Virus record (IMG/VR): IMGVR_UViG_3300010365_001248
Span: 32,001-96,000 of that record
Origin: a virus
Taxonomy: Duplodnaviria; Caudoviricetes
Direction: 5' to 3' (one strand)
Length of the DNA stretch: 64,000 nt
Position numbers and translations under genes: made by a program
The notes under the pieces: model-generated
Told to the model about the DNA's origin: nothing
The model's database searches: none
Seen by the model: the letters and a program-made list of their open reading frames with translations, nothing else
Part shown: piece by piece, positions 21,515-42,044 of the stretch
How positions within the stretch are numbered: the stretch's first letter is position 1
How the letters are laid out: each line of letters starts with the position of its first letter

Positions 21515-24500
21515 AACTGTTATAAATAAAAAGAGAGAAGAAAAAATATTTGATATAAATAAAATTCATATAGCTATTCGTAAAAGTGCTGATAGAATTT
21601 TAGTTACTCTAAATGATTCAGATTGTATTAAAATTTCAGATGAAGTTATTAATATGATTGATACTGAAAAAATAGAAGTTTCTAAATTGCATAATATAGT
21701 TGAACAAGCTCTTGAAAAAACTGGTTTTAATAAAGTAGCAGATTCTTATAGACAATATCGAAATTATAAATTAGATCTCCAAAAAACAAAAGAAACGGCT
21801 AATAATGATATTCAAGCTACTTTTATGAGTATTATTAATGCTGTTAATAATGATATTACTAGAGAAAATGCAAATATGAATTCAGATTCTCCTGCAGGTA
21901 TGATGATGAAATTTGCAAGTGAATCAACTAAACCTTTTGTAAGTAAATATCTTTTGTCTGAAGATGTTTTACTTGCAGAATCTTTAAATTATTTACATAT
22001 TCATGATAAAGATTACTATCCAACTAAAAGTTTGACTTGTATTCAGCACCCTTTAGATAGAATTCTTGAAAAAGGATTTAAAGCGGGGCATGGAGAAGCT
22101 AGAGGAGCTAAAAGAATTGAAACTGCTAGTATTTTAGCAGCTATTTCAATGGAAACTGTACAAAATGAAATGCATAAATAATACTGTGCATACTATTAGA
22201 AATAATAGGTAAAAATAAAAATAACGTGAACTTGTTTATCAGCAAGGTGTGAAAGAAACCTTTAGGGTTATATAGGAAATGATATATTTATTCTTTTGCT
22301 AACAGGGGAAGACACGTCCAAGTTTATCCTGTGCCAAGTACTAGTTACCATAAAAGTATTAATAAAAACTAGTAACTAGTAAAGGTCAAGAGACTATCGA
22401 AAAGTTATATTTTGCATAAGAAAATAAACACTTAGTAGAGTAGGGTAGAGATTGATACTATCCGAAGTGCGTTACAACTTAACATTTGAAGGTGAAGTTG
22501 ATGATATAGTCCGTCCTAAATTTATATTTAGGAAGGGTGGACAAGCAATTCCAGCTTTTGATTTTTATATGGCACCTTATGTAAGAAAAACATTTAATGA
22601 AGAAATTCTCAAAATTAAAAATTTTATGTTTGATTCAAATATTAATTGGGAGAATTTAATGAATATTAAATTGAAAGATTATATAAAGAAGCCTTTAACT
22701 GATTGTAAAGATTTGTCAGAAAAAATCATACAACAAGCTATAAATAATACAGTAGATAGAGTTCATCAAGCTATGGAATCTTTTATTCATAATATGAATT
22801 CTATTCATTCTAGAGGAGGTAAAATATGATTGCCTCCCAAATATAGTAATATATTTGTAAAAAATCCCGTAAAATCGGTGAAGTCTAAAAATATTAGGAT
22901 TCCAATAATATTCAAGATAATACCGAGGTAAGTTCTAAGATTGCGAAAGGCTTGGAAACACCGTAGAGCATAGTGGGTGAATAAATATAATCCCGCCAAG
23001 AGTATGGGACCCCAAATATATTTGGGTGAAAATGTATGCCGAACTATAAAGAAATTTATAGAAATAAAGGATAAAAAACCTTTATGATAACAAAATTGAA
23101 TCAAGTTGTATTTAGTAGTATTAATTATGGTACTGATACTTCAGCTGAAGGTAGGTGTGTAATTAGAGAACTATTAATATCTACGGAACAAGGAGTAGGA
23201 AATAATGCTACAGCTATTTTTCCGATACAAATTTGGAAAACAAAAGAAGGTGTATCAATATTACCTACTGATCCTAATTATGATTTATATAAATTCGCTT
23301 GTAAAGTTAGTGCACGCAGATTTTTTCCAAATTTTTTAAATCTAGATGCTACTTTTAACAAAGATGATGCTTGGGATATTAATGATCCTAAACGTTATGA
23401 ACATGAAGTAGCTGCAATGGGTAAGTGAAAATGCAGCCCATTTAAAACCTTTTGAACCGTGCTAACGGGTGTGGAATAAACGATTTAGTTTAGATTAATA
23501 GTCTATTAATTATTCTGCTAACTGCTAGGTCCAATAATAGCAGTTCTAAAATTATTGGATGAGGCAGTGCCAAATCGCAAAATGCGAAAGTGTGAATCGA
23601 CTATCCCTGATGAGTGTAAGGGAGTAGAATTGGAGATAAGCACCAATTCGAAGCGGAAGGCTCTAGAAATAGAGAACATATAGTCAGTACTAATGGTGAC
23701 ATTAGATTAATACGTGTAGAACCAGAGTTTATGAAAATGCTTTTGGACCTAAAACTTCAATAGGTAGAGGTAATATTAGTTTTTCTACTATGAATTTAGT
23801 TAAATTAGCTATTGAGGTTTCAATTCAAGATGAATTTTTATATAAAGAAAATAATAATTGGAAATTTAATGAAAATAAAAATTCAATTGAAGATAAAAAT
23901 AGAAGGCTAGAAGCATTTTTAATTAAATTATCAAATTTAGTAACTATTACTACTAAACAATTACATCAACGTTTTGAATTTCAAAAAACTGCTTTGAAAA
24001 AACAATTTCCTTTATTAATGCAAGGACTTTGGAATGGTTCTGAATCTTTAAAAGATACAGATACTATCGAATCAGTTATTAATTCAGGAACCCTCGGTGT
24101 GGGCTTTATAGGTTTGGCTGAAACTTTGGTAGCTTTAACTGGAAAACATCATGGAGAATCTGAAGAAAGTCAAAAGTTTGGTTTAACTATAATTAAAAGT
24201 ATTAAAGATCAATGCGTTGAAGCTAGAGAAAAATATAAGCATAATTATGCTTGTTTAGCTACTCCAGCTGAAGGTTTATCTGGTAAATTTACTAAAATAG
24301 ATAAAAAAGAATTTGGAATTATTCCTGGAGTTATTGACAAAGAATATTATACTAATTCTAATCATGTTCCTGTAGAATATAAATGTAGTATTGAGCACAA
24401 ATTTAAAATCGAAGGACCTTATCATGAATTAATTACAGCTGGTCACATCGGATATTGTGAGATTGATGGAGATTTAACTAAAAATCCAGAAGCTATTATG

Positions 24501-32617: not shown

Positions 32618-33559
32618 ATGTTTTTTACTACAAATAATTTTAATAAAGTTTATACAACTTATAGTTCAAGTTGGGCTGCAAATGGAATAACAACTGGAAA
32701 ATATATTTATGTTAATAAATGTGATTATGATATATTTTTAAAAAATCTTGTAAAACCGAAAGTTTCTTTAGATCCAGATAAAGATATTTTATGGATACAC
32801 CCTTCTTGTGTATTACCTAGAACACAAGTTAGGACTAAATATAAAATTGCTTTAAAAAAAGAAAAAGCCACTGTTTTAGTTTATCCTGATGTAGCTGGAG
32901 AATTATCTAGAAGATATACTAATGAATTTCAAACCTATATTAAAGATGATATATGCTGTTTGCTATATAGATCTTATGATAGGGATTTTGTTTTATTACC
33001 TGGTAATGAAAAATTATTAAAATCTGAATGTATTATTAGTAAACCTTTTAGATATTATGAATGTTGTCAAGAATTTGGTGAATTATGTCAGGATTTTTAT
33101 CAAAATGCTTCTTCAAAAAATTGGGTAAATGAAAGTGAAATTATAGATACTTTGGATTTACCTCCAATTTTACCTCAACATGTAGAGACTATAGTAAGTT
33201 TATTAAAATCTGATTCTAAACAATTAGCTTGGAAAATGTTATCAGAATTAAATTACAAAAGAGCTAGGAATTTTGTTAATCTTTTAATTCGTGATTTTGG
33301 TATAAATCGAATTAAAAAGAATGTATCTATTCAAGCTTTATTAGATTGTTGCCAGTCTTATAATTTAGAGGAATCTTCAGCTGAAGAAATTGACCTTATT
33401 TATCTTTACAAAAAAGAAAAACTTAAAAATGATTTTGAAGCTCATATAAATCGAATTAAAAATGAATTACATATTGATTTTAAATCTGAAATTAAATTAA
33501 CTTTTAATGCCTTAAATACAACTACTTCAATTATACTAGAAAATGAAAGCACAAATTAA
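32618..33559 (+). CDS. hypothetical protein
   Basis: 313 aa ORF. Confidence 0.75.
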   Translation: MFFTTNNFNKVYTTYSSSWAANGITTGKYIYVNKCDYDIFLKNLVKPKVSLDPDKDILWIHPSCVLPRTQVRTKYKIALKKEKATVLVYPDVAGELSRRYTNEFQTYIKDDICCLLYRSYDRDFVLLPGNEKLLKSECIISKPFRYYECCQEFGELCQDFYQNASSKNWVNESEIIDTLDLPPILPQHVETIVSLLKSDSKQLAWKMLSELNYKRARNFVNLLIRDFGINRIKKNVSIQALLDCCQSYNLEESSAEEIDLIYLYKKEKLKNDFEAHINRIKNELHIDFKSEIKLTFNALNTTTSIILENESTN

Positions 33560-34328
33560 TGTTAAAGAATATAATAATGATTTTGGTTCTTTAGTAGCCA
33601 TTAAAAAATTTATTGAATTTTGTGGAAGACTTTGCTATAATAGTAGAGATAAAATAACTCCTAGTTCTTATGATACTTTTTATGATATGCTACTAAAAAG
33701 AGGTCATTTATCTCCACTAGCTCATGGCACAGTGTACTTAACTGTTTCTAATGATTCTAAATGGTTAGCTCAATATGATGAGTATATTCCAAAAGGAATT
33801 TGGAAAAGAAATCCTTGGATTCGAGTAAATCAAGACGCAGATCATCTATTTATAACTACAAATATGCGTTTTATTGAAACTTATAAATTACAAGATTGGC
33901 TACAATATATATCTAATCCTTGCTATATGCACACTTATAGATATACTTTTGAAATAGAAGCTCCTATATCTTGTACTAGAGAATTAAATAGACACGCTTA
34001 TTTACTTAATGGAATCTGTGAAAAATCTACTAGATATATTGATATGAGTGGTGATACTCCATATATTATTACAAAACCTGAAATTATGAAATATATGGAA
34101 ATGGCAACAACGTTTTATGATTTGGCTTTACTTGGTGGAGCTCAAAAACAAGAAGCCCGTGAAGTATTACCTTTAGGAACTATGTCTACGGCTATTTATA
34201 CAGCTTTTGAAGATGATTGGGAAGAAATTCTATCTAAAAGATCTTCTGATGCTGGTGCTCATGGACAACATCCAATGATTAATGAAGTTGCTAATTTAAT
34301 ATATAATTCTATAAAAGATAGAAAATAA
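33543..34328 (+). CDS. thyX: FAD-dependent thymidylate synthase
   Basis: GRLCY, GHLSP and RELNRH...EKSTRY motifs; AREVLP. Confidence 0.88.
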   Translation: MKAQINVKEYNNDFGSLVAIKKFIEFCGRLCYNSRDKITPSSYDTFYDMLLKRGHLSPLAHGTVYLTVSNDSKWLAQYDEYIPKGIWKRNPWIRVNQDADHLFITTNMRFIETYKLQDWLQYISNPCYMHTYRYTFEIEAPISCTRELNRHAYLLNGICEKSTRYIDMSGDTPYIITKPEIMKYMEMATTFYDLALLGGAQKQEAREVLPLGTMSTAIYTAFEDDWEEILSKRSSDAGAHGQHPMINEVANLIYNSIKDRK

Positions 34329-35694: not shown

Positions 35695-36654
35695 ATGATA
35701 AAAAATAAAAATTTACATAAAGCTAAAAAAGAAAAAAATGATGAATTTTATACTCAACTGGCTGATATTGAAAGAGAATGTTATAAATATAAAGATCTTT
35801 TTCGGGATAAAGTTATTTACTGTAATTGTGATGATGCAAGGGAGAGTAATTTTTTCAGATACTTCTCTATGAATTTCGAGTTCTTTGGTTTGAAAAGACT
35901 TATTACAACTGGGTATAAAGCCAACGGACATGGAGTAGCTTTAATATATGAGGGAGATAAAAATGGAAATAGAGTTGTAGATGATGAGGAAATTCAGGTA
36001 GTCGAGTTAGAAGGTAATGGAGACTTTAGATCACCTGAGTGTATAGAGTTTTTAAAACAAGCTGATATCGTCGTTACCAACCCTCCCTTCTCCCTTTTCC
36101 GTGAATATGTGGGACTACTTATGGAATACAACAAGAAATTCCTAATTATAGGTAACTACAATGCTGTAACTTATAAAGAAATTTTTCCCCTTATAAAAAA
36201 CAATAAAATATGGTTAGGTATTCATTCAAATGTGACTATGGAATTTGCAATGCCTGATAGCTATCAAAAATATGATAGAATAGAAAATGGGGTAAAGATA
36301 GGTAAAGTTCCTTCAATTTGTTGGTTTACAAATTTACCTAACAAGAAACGAACTGAATCTTTGGATTTATATAAAAAGTATAATTCAAAAGAGTATCCGC
36401 AATACGACAATTACGACGCCATTAATGTAAACAAAGTGACTGACATTCCTATGGATTATGATGGTGTGATGGGTGTGCCTATCACTTTTCTGGACAAGTA
36501 TAATCCTAATCAATTTGAAATACTAAGTTCTAATGATTATCGAAAATCAGATTCTGTTCCATTCAAAGCACATGGACTTATAAAAGATAAAGATGGAGCG
36601 ATAAACGGCAAACCCACTTACGCCCGCATCCTCATTCGTCGCTTGATTATTTAA
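35695..36654 (+). CDS. adenine-specific DNA methyltransferase, EcoRI family (copy 1, single chain)
   Basis: KNDEFYT, YCNCDD, GDFRS.EC, catalytic TNPPFSLF and GVPITFLDKYNP. Confidence 0.92.
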   Translation: MIKNKNLHKAKKEKNDEFYTQLADIERECYKYKDLFRDKVIYCNCDDARESNFFRYFSMNFEFFGLKRLITTGYKANGHGVALIYEGDKNGNRVVDDEEIQVVELEGNGDFRSPECIEFLKQADIVVTNPPFSLFREYVGLLMEYNKKFLIIGNYNAVTYKEIFPLIKNNKIWLGIHSNVTMEFAMPDSYQKYDRIENGVKIGKVPSICWFTNLPNKKRTESLDLYKKYNSKEYPQYDNYDAINVNKVTDIPMDYDGVMGVPITFLDKYNPNQFEILSSNDYRKSDSVPFKAHGLIKDKDGAINGKPTYARILIRRLII

Positions 36655-36669
36655 TAACTAATTATAAAA

Positions 36670-37530
36670 ATGATAAAAAATAAAAATTTACATAAAGCTA
36701 AAAAAGAAAAAAATGATGAGTTTTATACTCAACTAGCTGATATTGAAAGAGAATGTTATAAATATAAAGATCTTTTTAAAGATAAAATTATTTATTGTAA
36801 TTGCGATGATGCTAGAGAAAGTAATTTTTTTAAATACTTTTCAATGAATTTTGAATTTTTTGGATTGAAAAAACTCATTACAACTGGATATAAAGCTAAT
36901 GGACATGGAGTAGCTTTTATATATGAAGGAGATAAAAATGGGAATAAAGTTGTAGATGATGAAGAAATACAAGTAATTAATTTAGAAGGAGATGGAGATT
37001 TTAAATCCCCAGAATGTATAGAATTTCTAAAACAAGCGGATATTATTGTAACCAACCCACCCTTTAGCCTTTTCAGGGAGTATGTAGCCTAGTTGATGAA
37101 ATATAATAAGAAATTTTTAATTATAGGATCTCAGAATGCTATTACATATAAAGAAATTTTTTCTTATATTAAAAATAATAAAATGTGGTTAGGAACTCAA
37201 TTAGTAAAAGAATTTATAACTCCATTAAAAACAATTACTGAAAAAACACAATATTGTAATGATCAAGGACAAATTATTCAAAAATTTGGAAATATTTGTT
37301 GGTTTACTAATTTACCTCATAATAAACGAAATGAAAGTATAGATTTATATAAAAAGTATAATAAAAATGATTATCCTACTTATGATAATTATGATGCAAT
37401 TGAAGTAAAAAAAGTTGCTGAAATTCCTATGGATTATGAAGTTGAAAGAATTGTAACAGAAGAGGAATTAAATAAACTTAATAAGTTAGGATTTACTATT
37501 GAAATACTTGAAGAATATGAAAACATATAA
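36670..37530 (+). CDS. EcoRI-family adenine methyltransferase copy 2, large subunit, with in-frame TAG at 37090-37092
   Basis: Co-linear with copy 1 across the TAG (YVA*LMKY vs YVGLLMEY); stops before the GVPITF block. Confidence 0.8.
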
Positions 37531-37726
37531 AATAAAAATTAAAAATCCTGCTATAGGAGTTCCTATTACATTTATGGACAAATATAACCCAGAACAATTT
37601 GAAATCATAGGAATGGGAGAAGATAATGGCATGGGACAATCAGGTGGAGTTTGGTTAGGAGGTTCAAAATCTTGTTTAGTGAATGGGAAAGCTGCATTTA
37701 AGCGTATTTTCATTCGTCATAAATAA
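37517..37726 (+). CDS. methyltransferase C-terminal module A (separate small ORF)
   Basis: MKTYKIKIKNPAIGVPITFMDKYNPEQFEI...RIFIRHK; homologous to the C-terminus of copy 1. Confidence 0.8.
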   Translation: MKTYKIKIKNPAIGVPITFMDKYNPEQFEIIGMGEDNGMGQSGGVWLGGSKSCLVNGKAAFKRIFIRHK

Positions 37727-37742
37727 CTAATAAAATATTATT

Positions 37743-37919
37743 ATGAAAACTTATAAAATAAAGATTAAAAATCCTGTGATGGGTGTGCCTATCACTTTTC
37801 TGGACAAGTATAATCCAGACCAGTTTGAGATCATTAGATTCAGAAAAGGGAATGATGATAAGGACTTGTCAATAAATGGTAAATGTCCATATTTCCGCAT
37901 CCTCATTCGTCGCAAATAA
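37743..37919 (+). CDS. methyltransferase C-terminal module B (58 aa, not in the ORF track)
   Basis: MKTYKIKIKNPVMGVPITFLDKYNPDQFEIIRFRKGNDDKDLSINGKCPYFRILIRRK. Confidence 0.8.
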   Translation: MKTYKIKIKNPVMGVPITFLDKYNPDQFEIIRFRKGNDDKDLSINGKCPYFRILIRRK

Positions 37920-37936
37920 TTAATAAAAGCAGTAAT

Positions 37937-38416
37937 ATGAAAATAGAACTAGTAAAAACAAAGATATCAGAGTTATTTAGGGGTTACATAAATACTCAGG
38001 AAGATGGTGTAAAAGGTTATAACGGATTATTAAATATACGCCCACCATATCAGAGAGAATTTGTATATAAAGATAAGCAGAGAGATGCCGTAATAGAAAC
38101 AATAAATAAAGGCTTTCCACTTAATTCGATGTATTGGGTAAGAAATAGTGACGGAACGTTTGAATTACTCGATGGACAGCAAAGGACGTTATCTATTTGT
38201 TCTTACCTTAATGGAGAGTTCAGTATAGATGGAAAAGCTTGGCATAACTTATTTCCAGTAGAGCAGAATAAAATTAACGACTACGAATTAATGGTATATA
38301 TCTGTGAAGGAGATGAGGTAGAGAAGCTTGAATGGTTTAGAACAATTAATATCGCTGGAGAAAAGCTAACGGATCATCGAGAGAGTCATCAAGGAATATT
38401 TGGAGGCATAATCTAA
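37937..38416 (+). pseudogene. DUF262 (ParB/Srx-like) restriction-associated protein, truncated near 38375
   Basis: RPPYQREF, LLDGQQRT, WFRTINIAGEKLT, then an abrupt switch to unrelated sequence; no nuclease domain. Confidence 0.75.
38376..38411 (+). pseudogene. probable C-terminal remnant of host guanylate kinase
   Basis: IERVIKEYLEA* immediately upstream of nadD; gmk-nadD adjacency is typical of Bacteroidales (inference). Confidence 0.4.
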
Positions 38417-38435
38417 TATAAATATCCCGACGCGT

Positions 38436-39020
38436 ATGAAAATTGCACTGTTTTTCGGTTCATTCAATCCAGTCCATATCGGTCACGTCGCTTTGGCGAA
38501 TTATGTGGCTGAGTATGGAAATGTCGACAAGGTGATGATGATAGTGTCACCGTTGAATCCGTTGAAGGCAGGCAATACATTGCTTCCAAACGAAGTGAGA
38601 CTTAATATGCTTCGTAAGGCGGTGGAAGGGTACAGCAAGATTGAGGTTTCAGATGTTGAGTTTGGACTTCCAATTCCGTCGTACACATACGACACTTTGG
38701 AATATTTGAGACGAGAGCATCCTGAGCACGAATATATACTGCTGATGGGAGCCGACAATGTGGAGGTTTTCTCAAAGTGGCGTAACTATGATAAGATTCT
38801 TGAAAAGTATCACGTCATGGTATATCCACGTCGAGGATACACGGATGAACTGCCATATAATAATATGAGTAGAATCGAAACACCGATTATAGAAGTGTCG
38901 TCGACATTCATCAGAGAATCGGTGGAGAAGGGCAGAGACGTGAGGTTCTTTCTGCCTGGAGGCATCTACGACGATGTATGCAGAGAAGTAAGAAAAATGA
39001 AAAAAATTACAATAAAATGA
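38436..39020 (+). CDS. nadD: nicotinate-nucleotide adenylyltransferase (host-derived)
   Basis: FGSFNPVHIGH, SPLNPLK, PSYTYDTL, MGADN and SSTFIR; clearly higher GC than the phage backbone. Confidence 0.95.
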   Translation: MKIALFFGSFNPVHIGHVALANYVAEYGNVDKVMMIVSPLNPLKAGNTLLPNEVRLNMLRKAVEGYSKIEVSDVEFGLPIPSYTYDTLEYLRREHPEHEYILLMGADNVEVFSKWRNYDKILEKYHVMVYPRRGYTDELPYNNMSRIETPIIEVSSTFIRESVEKGRDVRFFLPGGIYDDVCREVRKMKKITIK

Positions 39021-39154
39021 AAGATAGAATTAGTGAACTTCTTGAAGAGGTTTCCAAGCTTTCAGCGGAGAATGCAGAGCAGTTGGAGGCACTTAGAATC
39101 AAGTATTTGAGCAAGAAAGGAGAGATTTCTTCGCTGTTCAATGATTTCAAGAAT
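39017..39154 (+). pseudogene. pheS: N-terminal fragment of host phenylalanyl-tRNA synthetase alpha subunit
   Basis: MKDRISELLEEV...LEALRIKYLSKKGEISSLFNDF coiled-coil; breaks off after about 46 codons. Confidence 0.75.
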
Positions 39155-39265
39155 CAACAATTCCGCAATTTTCTATCTCCAACATCCGGGTTATGCGAGA
39201 ATCTAGAAGATTTAGTTGTGTTTTAATTAGAGTTTTAATTAGAGAATCTAGATCTAGATATCCCT

Positions 39266-39460
39266 ATCTATCCTAATCCTGCAACTGATGTTATCACTGT
39301 AACTAACGAGGGTGTTAACAGCGTGGCTGTTTACTCTGTAGCTGGTTCTTTGGTTGCTTCTTCTGAGTCTAACGTAGTTAGCGTAGCAAACTTGGTTAAG
39401 GGTATCTACGTTGTTGCGGCTAACACAGAGGCAGGTGTAATCACAGGTCAGATCATCAAT
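39266..39460 (+). pseudogene. fragment encoding a T9SS (Por) C-terminal sorting domain
   Basis: IYPNPATDVITV...VAVYSVAGSLV...LVKGIYVV; in-frame TAA at 39236 and no start codon before the domain. Confidence 0.75.
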
Positions 39461-39646
39461 AGAGGCTTTAATAAAACTATAGAAGAGTTGCAGAAAGAAC
39501 GAGCTCGGTTAATTGAGGAGCTTGATAAAATTGACGAAAATGGATGTATGGATACTATACTCAGATAACATTACTAGGGATAGAATAGAGAAATTACAAC
39601 AAGATGAATTATAACTCAGGATTATTTATTTAAAAACTGAAAAACT

Positions 39647-39805
39647 ATGATAGTATTACTTTTAGCGATGTTTTTTGCAATTTGTTGTGGAATAGTTGCA
39701 AATAATAAAAATAGAAGCGTAGGTCTTGCTATATTTTGTGGATTTTTCTTTGGAATTTTTGCTTTGATAATTTATTTGCTGTTAGGAAAAAAAGAAAAAG
39801 AATAA
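39647..39805 (+). CDS. small membrane protein
   Basis: 52 aa; two hydrophobic segments around ANNKNRS. Confidence 0.6.
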   Translation: MIVLLLAMFFAICCGIVANNKNRSVGLAIFCGFFFGIFALIIYLLLGKKEKE

Positions 39806-39982
39806 TGAAAAAAATTATTAAATTAATTATATTAATTTTATAATCATTCTAATAATTCTTCTTATGATTGCCCTTATAATTCATGAATATATTTAATAAT
39901 GATATTTGTCTTTTTAATAACAATTGCTCTGGGTATTCATATAATTAATTTATATTATAATATAATAAAGAAAAGAAATAAA

Positions 39983-40501
39983 ATGATAACTTTTGATAAT
40001 GTCATCACTAATTATAACTATGCTCTCGATACTCTTGATAAATATGATTATCAAAAGTTGATTGTAGAGCAAACTACAAATGAGGAACGTTTTCATGCGA
40101 CTTACGAAAATGCTATAGATGCCATAACTTGTATGAAAAACAAATTTGGCGGCAGTTCGCTGTTCGGTAATGAGAAAGATGATTCTTTCAAAAGTTCTAT
40201 CGGACAAATCTACCAGACATTTGGAGGTGTTGATCTCTATCCGTCTGTGGAAGAAAAAGCGGCTATGTTGCTATATCTTGTCACTAAAAACCATTCTTTC
40301 AGCGATGGAAACAAACGGATTGCTGCTGCGTTGTTTCTTTGGTTTATGAACAACAATGGTATTTTGTACGACGAGAATGGAGGCAAACGTATAGCGGACA
40401 ACACTTTGGTGGCTTTGACTTTAATGATTGCTGAGAGTCGTCCTGAAGAAAAAGATATTATAATAAAAGTAATTGTTAATTTAATAAATAAAAACAATTA
40501 A
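39983..40501 (+). CDS. Fic/Doc family protein (resembles the C-terminal half of Bacteroidales RhuM-Fic proteins)
   Basis: HSFSDGNKRIA Fic motif; LYPSVEEKAA; start 39983 or 39899. Confidence 0.85.
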   Translation: MITFDNVITNYNYALDTLDKYDYQKLIVEQTTNEERFHATYENAIDAITCMKNKFGGSSLFGNEKDDSFKSSIGQIYQTFGGVDLYPSVEEKAAMLLYLVTKNHSFSDGNKRIAAALFLWFMNNNGILYDENGGKRIADNTLVALTLMIAESRPEEKDIIIKVIVNLINKNN

Positions 40502-41956: not shown

Positions 41957-42044
41957 AAATAACCCCTAGCACTTTTTAGTGTTAGGGGTTATTTTTTTCG
42001 TACACCCTATAACTTTTTAGTTATAGGGTTATTTTTTTCGTACA
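41957..42044. terminator. tandem terminator hairpins between the converging arms
   Basis: Hairpins at 41957-41994 and 42003-42029, each followed by identical GGTTATTTTTTTCGTACA. Confidence 0.85.

Follow-up and report, generated by a model that had tools for sequence, protein, structure and literature searches.

The gene for nicotinate-nucleotide adenylyltransferase (nadD) carried by this uncultured phage lies within a 779-bp piece of host chromosome that, judging from its near identity to host alleles, was captured very recently. The capture was probably repair filler that took the place of part of a phage restriction nuclease, with nadD as a passenger or exerting at most a dosage effect. The phage is TAG recoded, crAss-like, and about 164 kb long (IMG/VR record of 163,912 bp; 94% completeness by CheckV; mean GC content of the whole genome, 27%), and its host belongs to a ruminant-gut and digester lineage of Bacteroidales. 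We studied bases 32001 to 96000 of the record, a stretch of 64,000 nucleotides that we refer to as the window; positions are those of the window unless another locus is named.

Across positions 38350 to 39100, the GC content rises to 0.43, against ∼0.25 to 0.33 outside. To locate the source of this block, we ran blastn against host loci that had been fetched using the nadD protein as the query. Positions 38376 to 39154 (779 bp) matched host DNA in one ungapped-like alignment (E = 0), with nucleotide identities of 99.1% to Bacteroidales bacterium UBA3743 (L002, 3941 to 4718), 98.2% to UBA3844, and 84 to 89% to nine further metagenome-assembled genomes labeled Paludibacteraceae, Bacteroidales, or Candidatus Scybalocola. 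The segment has a GC content of 43%, versus 27% for the phage. Its gene order is that of the host, namely, the end of the guanylate kinase gene (gmk; PF00625), nadD, and the start of pheS (PF01409 and PF02912); the 24-nt host spacer between gmk and nadD has been kept, and the pheS start overlaps the nadD stop in the same arrangement as in the host (Table 1). The encoded NadD is 99% identical in amino acid sequence to the proteins of UBA3743 and UBA3844, scores 150.1 bits against the equivalog profile TIGR00482 (curated cutoff, 112.45), and shows both the N-terminal HxGH and the C-terminal ISST-type nucleotide-binding motifs of a full-length enzyme. The blastn alignment, the profile matches, and the host gene order thus bear out the original prediction of a GC-richer block of captured host chromosome with a gmk remnant, a complete nadD, and about 46 pheS codons, both neighbors being cut and nadD alone being whole. 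Of the limits that it gave (38372 to 39154), the end is exact, while the start was placed 4 bases too early. The further suggestion that the segment is centered on nadD found no support: it belongs to a scrambled restriction-modification island with three or more host-like patches, its ends ignore gene borders, and nadD is whole because the gene is short.

Table 1. Features in and around the host-derived segment and the NAD salvage operon of a related phage
Feature	Position	Strand	Basis or remarks
EcoRI-family type II adenine methylase, copy 1, intact	35695..36654	+	PF13651, 425 bits; PADLOC MTase_II, 399 bits
Methylase copy 2, interrupted, plus extra C-terminal pieces	36670..37919	+	PF13651, both halves; ORF list
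DUF262-HNH type II restriction nuclease, 5' remnant (residues 1 to 146 of ∼367)	37937..38375	+	PF03235
Host gmk tail (11 last codons plus stop, 36 nt)	38376..38411	+	L002/L003 alignment; host ORF is guanylate kinase
nadD, complete, host type (nicotinate-nucleotide adenylyltransferase, 194 aa)	38436..39020	+	TIGR00482
pheS head (exactly 46 codons)	39017..39154	+	PF02912; alignment ends at 39154
Linker (102 bp; GC content, 0.32; short internal direct repeats)	39155..39256		No match to known source
Second host scrap (last ∼67 codons of T9SS-sorted protein)	39257..39461	+	PF18962, TIGR04183
Remnant like 3' end of host gene preceding another DUF262 gene	39503..39618	+	79% nucleotide identity, G003:C58:14221-14293
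Fic/Doc-domain protein	39899..40501	+	PF02661; PADLOC PDC-S23, 247 bits, profile positions 156 to 326 of 327
NAD salvage operon of L075 (IMG/VR UViG_3300012016_000001)	L075:14806-21190		Profile matches; followed by YqeY and dNMP kinase

The sequence to the left of the segment belongs to a damaged type II restriction-modification cassette. Cassettes of this kind, in which an EcoRI-family methylase is paired with a DUF262 (ParB-like)-HNH nuclease (PADLOC MTase_II and REase_II), occur in 22 viral contigs and in the hosts. The phage resembles them in having the methylase and nuclease residues 1 to 146 but differs in that the HNH half has been lost to the host patch, leaving duplicated methylases without a nuclease. 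In the second methylase copy, the reading frame is split by an in-frame TAG at 37090 to 37092, where copy 1 has Leu; if the recoding phage reads through this codon late in infection, as it may, copy 2 would not truly be broken. The nuclease remnant covers positions 1 to 151 of the 372-position REase_II profile, whereas a full-length homologue (L045) covers positions 1 to 372, including the HNH domain. Homology ends at residue 146, exactly at the 38375/38376 junction, and beyond it, the nuclease frame continues for 13 junk codons, out of frame in the gmk tail, until the ORF ends at 38416. Nuclease homologues in the 22 viral loci are 360 to 386 amino acids long in 20 cases, with one cut by the end of its contig and one stopping at 105 amino acids; they match REase_II over the full profile, and among the matches listed, an EcoRI-family methylase precedes the nuclease gene. 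A search of the whole 164-kb genome for the other 220 residues, among them the HNH domain, found them nowhere. Because nuclease homology stops at the junction and does not resume elsewhere in the genome, the host DNA replaced the 3' 60% of the nuclease gene and was not simply inserted into it. We also considered a left join made by cutting and ligation at GATC, but the joined sequence does not fit.

More host-like DNA lies to the right of the segment, beyond the linker. Searches of five host genomes, INPHARED, and IMG/VR with the linker gave no match, nor did a search of IMG/VR with an exact 28-mer taken from it. The scrap that follows, from a gene for a type 9 secretion system (T9SS)-sorted protein, is 95 to 96% identical over 203 bp to G002:C9:122497-122699 (UBA3844) and G001:C29:73929-74131 (UBA3743); it lacks a start codon of its own as well as the final two codons and the stop, and its source contigs differ from the nadD contigs in the same host genomes. 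Further downstream is the remnant at 39503 to 39618; in the related host genome G003, a DUF262-type protein begins right after the translated stretch that matches it. The Fic/Doc ORF, which covers only the C-terminal half of PDC-S23, a candidate defense protein, and sits on a separate GC-richer islet, is probably another acquired fragment. A 77% identical copy of this ORF is present in an unrelated viral contig with a GC content of 44% (L068).

Exchange with the host may also have left a trace within the cassette. The hosts own a copy of the methylase-nuclease cassette, parts of which are 67 to 77% identical to those of the phage (∼69% for the bulk of the copy 1 methylase of the phage against that of UBA3844). 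The 3' end of this methylase, by contrast, is 94% identical to the UBA3844 gene over 254 bp (36389 to 36642; G002:C43:94218-94471), which looks like the product of gene conversion between the cassettes of phage and host. When ∼158 of the 164 kb of the phage genome was compared with the two nearest host genomes, host-like DNA was found only at 36.0 to 39.5 kb and at two protospacers. The ∼3-kb island is a recombination hot spot around a restriction-modification cassette common to phage and host, and one-sided homology in the cassette may have helped illegitimate joins.

A mosaic of this kind could be produced by assembly, with host reads misjoined into the contig of a phage that has no nadD. 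We regard such a chimera as highly improbable. The Logan contigs of both runs in which we followed the junctions (X1 and X2) do end at 38376 from either side, the host-type loose ends at this position indicate that the host co-occurs, and no contig bridging the left junction is among those listed. The right side, however, is independently confirmed: a 1,125-nt X2 contig (38434 to 39558) starts in the nadD interior, crosses the right junction and the linker, takes in the T9SS scrap with both of its ends, and meets a 13.5-kb phage contig, and three X1 contigs cover the right junction, the linker, and the scrap joints. A chimera would require several misjoins. Sequencing depth is flat over flank, insert, and flank (∼14, 17, and 15 in X1 and 30, 30, and 34 in X2) and scales together between the runs, and 93 to 95% of sampled words from 37600 to 40100 occur in the two runs, which come from two studies and were assembled independently. 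The excess depth at 38356 to 38439 fits a short, unlisted bridging contig. Spanning sequence was found at the right junction in independent contigs from two runs; for the left junction, support comes from the IMG/VR assembly and from depth, with no bridging contig among those listed. X1 contigs branch exactly at 39155, whereas X2 contigs run through; this branch may reflect a variant in the same sample whose left neighbor differs, possibly a phage without the nadD patch. Scans of viral and metagenome contigs with the flanking proteins found no near-identical insert-free phage and returned relatives with at most 53% amino acid identity or unrelated carriers of single genes.

To estimate the age of the capture, we polarized the phage-host differences against nine host genomes. 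The phage differs from both nearest hosts at four third positions, three of which proved to carry alleles of other hosts, and differences from just one of these two hosts are likewise alleles present in other hosts. The only phage-specific substitutions are at 38783 (in nadD; still C in the single 809-nt X1 contig covering that site) and 39134 (in the pheS fragment), and both are synonymous. An extra A at 39000 changes the last two NadD residues and adds two (194 amino acids, versus 192 in the host); we rejected a phage-specific frameshift or assembly error as its source, as it is found in both phage runs and in host locus L005, which has the same C-terminal difference. We also rejected a reading of purifying selection and AT drift from the four third-position differences, as three are ordinary host alleles. 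With at most two substitutions in 779 bp from known host alleles, the capture appears to be very recent; the 99.1% identity and the lack of any shift in base composition toward that of the phage agree with the original prediction on this point. Too little time has passed since the capture for decay or for drift to phage base composition, and with two changes at most, the intactness and conservation of nadD are uninformative about selection or retention.

The nearly identical DNA points to the donor, and CRISPR spacers point to the host. A 38-nt spacer in an array of UBA3844 (L039:1501-1538) matches positions 879 to 916 of the phage genome (36/38 identical), and one of 39 nt from a UBA3743 array (L040:1501-1539) matches positions 23098 to 23136 (36/39 identical). 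Both spacers sit exactly between repeats, and the two arrays differ (30-nt versus 37-nt repeats), with each contributing one phage-matching spacer with two to three mismatches. Because spacers of both UBA3743 and UBA3844 match the phage, the donor lineage is also the host, which we assign, from the 99% identical DNA and independently from the CRISPR spacers, to the UBA3743/UBA3844 species group of Paludibacteraceae-type Bacteroidales. The expectation that the segment should identify the host was therefore upheld, with independent backing from the spacers. Two public runs labeled "activated sludge" contain the whole phage stretch. In cattle and sheep gut runs, ∼0.29 of the sampled words are present, all from the host part of the stretch, and we rejected these small word shares as evidence of the phage; in RNA runs, too, the sampled words that are present are confined to the host share.

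Taken together, the cut neighbors, the truncated nuclease, and the adjoining scraps lead us to favor repair filler. A break inside the type II restriction-modification cassette of the phage during a recent infection would have been healed with host DNA, presumably by illegitimate recombination, so that the nuclease lost its 3' 60% and gained the 779-bp chromosomal piece, the 102-bp linker, and the 203-bp scrap of a secreted-protein gene. The strand of nadD is that of the methylase operon, and a sequence scan found no terminator-like site between the methylase and nadD; read-through transcription from this operon is therefore probable and expression plausible. The product would be the same NaMN adenylyltransferase that the host already makes, and the knockout of the nuclease may itself be the change that mattered. 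In a crude simulation, ∼10% of random 779-bp host windows held a complete ORF, and ∼5% held one in the sense orientation; when many windows are scanned, an intact passenger is thus nothing exceptional. Several points count against filler. An intact sense gene is expected in only ∼5% of random captures of this size, the depth of the insert is even with that of its flanks in two samples, which speaks against a rare and defective variant, and NAD synthesis is a pathway known to be exploited by phages. The native NadD-like gene of distant relatives at the syntenic place, the SEFIR-like protein of the nearest host, and the lack of a listed contig across the left junction also weigh on this side.

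Most of these points bear on a different and, in our judgment, unlikely course of events, in which the capture was random but the nadD genotype then spread as a nascent auxiliary metabolic or counterdefense gene. An extra NaMN/NMN adenylyltransferase would speed NAD+ resynthesis via the PncA-PncB-NadE route of the host, with a benefit expected when host defenses or the infection itself depletes NAD+. The gene is intact and in the sense orientation, with no terminator separating it from the upstream operon, and the nadD-bearing genotype matches the phage flanks in depth in two runs. NAD+-depleting defenses may also be encountered, as UBA3743 encodes a 428-amino-acid TIR_2/bSEFIR-like protein (L177:1432-2715; PADLOC bSEFIR, 232 bits) and a host relative (G005) encodes a SIR2_2 protein; SEFIR-type proteins are reported to deplete NAD+ (bioRxiv 10.1101/2024.02.11.579819), and work cited in PMC11662467 found that nadD overexpression raises NAD+. 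Against a benefit, the enzyme is essentially identical to that of the host and could act by dosage only, the fragment ends disregard gene borders, useless scrap arrived with it, and too little time has passed since capture for selection to be tested. The bSEFIR-like gene of UBA3743 adjoins an AbiH-like gene, making this a candidate NAD+-depleting defense locus.

The lack of partner genes weighs further against such a benefit, since the phage NAD pathways described to date are all multigene (bioRxiv 10.1101/2024.02.11.579819; PMC13464706) and no partner occurs anywhere in the 164-kb record. Profile searches of the record gave no match to the NAPRTase family (PF04095; Nampt, Namat, and PncB), which control genomes do match, to the Pribosyltran_N family of the PRPP synthetase-like Adps (PF13793), or to PnuC (PF04973); a second nucleotidyltransferase is absent, with nadD being the sole cytidylyltransferase-like gene. 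tblastn with the PncA, PncB, NadE, Nudix, and ADP-ribosylglycohydrolase (ARH) proteins of relatives likewise found only nadD in the phage genome. The earlier observation that the window holds no partner enzyme thus extends to the whole record. An NAD+-dependent ligase was considered as a source of NAD+ demand and rejected (PF01653, no matches). The nadD insert was not found in another phage, either by a pattern search of IMG/VR, which returned no relatives of the gene, or in INPHARED, which held nothing above 45% identity. Retention for NAD salvage or antidefense, as originally proposed, is unsupported: a functionless 203-bp scrap adjoins the segment, part of a phage gene was replaced, and the changes since capture are at most two and synonymous. 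We consider improbable the more ambitious version of the proposal, in which a counterdefense gene has been caught just as it arises and host nadD, newly gained by a lineage without the salvage operon of its relatives, already outruns SEFIR/TIR-type NAD+ depletion while the phage's own nuclease has been disarmed as well.

Distant relatives, on the other hand, do own an NAD pathway, which speaks for a useful nadD. Eleven related crAss-like loci, with core proteins 40 to 50% identical, have a native, AT-rich NAD operon (GC content, 32 to 33%) downstream of the homologue of our phage's ORF at 33543 to 34328, i.e., in the region syntenic with the nadD patch. Genes for PncA-like and PncB-like proteins, a 93-amino-acid ORF, and NAD synthase are present in all 11, NadD-like and Nudix genes are present in 9, and an ADP-ribosylglycohydrolase gene is present in 9. 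In L075, the operon consists of an isochorismatase (PncA-like), ADP-ribosylglycohydrolase, NAPRTase (PncB-like), the 93-amino-acid ORF, NAD synthase, NadD-like, and Nudix genes, and the NadD-like protein is 175 amino acids long, with TIGR00482 scores of 101 to 109 bits for the relatives' proteins. The native operon is also seen in L076, L077, L085, L112, L117, and L143, and the phages are 163 to 194 kb in size. Our literature search found no report of such an NAD cluster for crAss-like phages. Looking for nadD in related phages therefore gave a divided answer, with a native NadD-like gene in distant relatives and a captured host-type nadD in none found.

Host metabolic genes in phages, nadD included, and the mechanism proposed here are both already known, and the locus is best placed by comparison with the systems described. 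Classical auxiliary metabolic genes, or morons, taken up from hosts through illegitimate recombination, are old, phage adapted, and conserved across lineages. Our segment is like host-acquired genes of this kind in being a host metabolic gene with host-like base composition in a phage but unlike them in being at most two substitutions from the donor allele and in having nonfunctional filler DNA alongside. Among the phage NAD+ reconstitution pathways, NARP1 consists of Adps and Namat, and NARP2 consists of Nampt and Nmnat, e.g., in Vibrio phage KVP40 (bioRxiv 10.1101/2024.02.11.579819), while NARP3 combines PnuC with a NadR-like protein (PMC13464706). The likeness lies in a phage-borne NAD+ synthesis enzyme, with adenylyl transfer by NadD being the same kind of reaction as the Nmnat step of NARP2. 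All three, however, are two-gene, phage-resident systems, whereas here there is a lone host allele at 99% identity, and the record lacks the partner that each would need: Nampt (PF04095) for NARP2, PF13793 and PF04095 for NARP1, and PF04973 for NARP3, with nadD as the only cytidylyltransferase-like gene. Nor is it a Preiss-Handler cluster, as pncB and nadE are absent beside nadD. Such clusters (pncB-nadD-nadE) or salvage clusters occur in "NAD-jumbo phages" from animal guts, and a giant phage that has nadD alone has been described (PMC11662467), a precedent in favor of usefulness. Ours is similarly a gut phage with nadD, and its relatives, L075, L076, and L077 among them, match the description of this group; it differs in having nadD only, at a GC content of 43% against 27%, with cut neighbor genes that arrived alongside.

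What makes the locus valuable is how finely the event is resolved and how it contrasts with relatives possessing a full salvage operon. It offers an unusually clean and datable host-to-phage transfer in an uncultured crAss-like phage, with the donor narrowed to a species group, both junctions placed to the exact base, and the phage sequence that was lost now known; useless filler DNA arrived together with the gene. It also calls for caution, as an intact host gene in a phage is not always an adaptation. If nadD does turn out to be useful, the locus would represent a first step in the building of multigene NAD+ salvage operons like those of the relatives.

Outside the window, at G000:C1:20625-21545, lies a 0.9-kb islet with a GC content of 41% and no matches in the two nearest host genomes. 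The recoding of the phage is evident from its reading frames: TAG as a sense codon is needed for continuous ORFs from ∼74 kb onward and in the first 10 kb of the genome, and reading it as such raises ORF coverage from between 0.3 and 0.6 to between 0.83 and 1.0 in all 10-kb bins except one. Across the late minus-strand half (window positions 42000 to 64000 plus the remainder of the genome), frames are open only when TAG is read as sense. A 90-nt tRNA with the anticodon CTA is located near the end of the phage genome (L038:1152-1241), and the nadD patch is positioned at the end of the plus-strand, standard-code early block.
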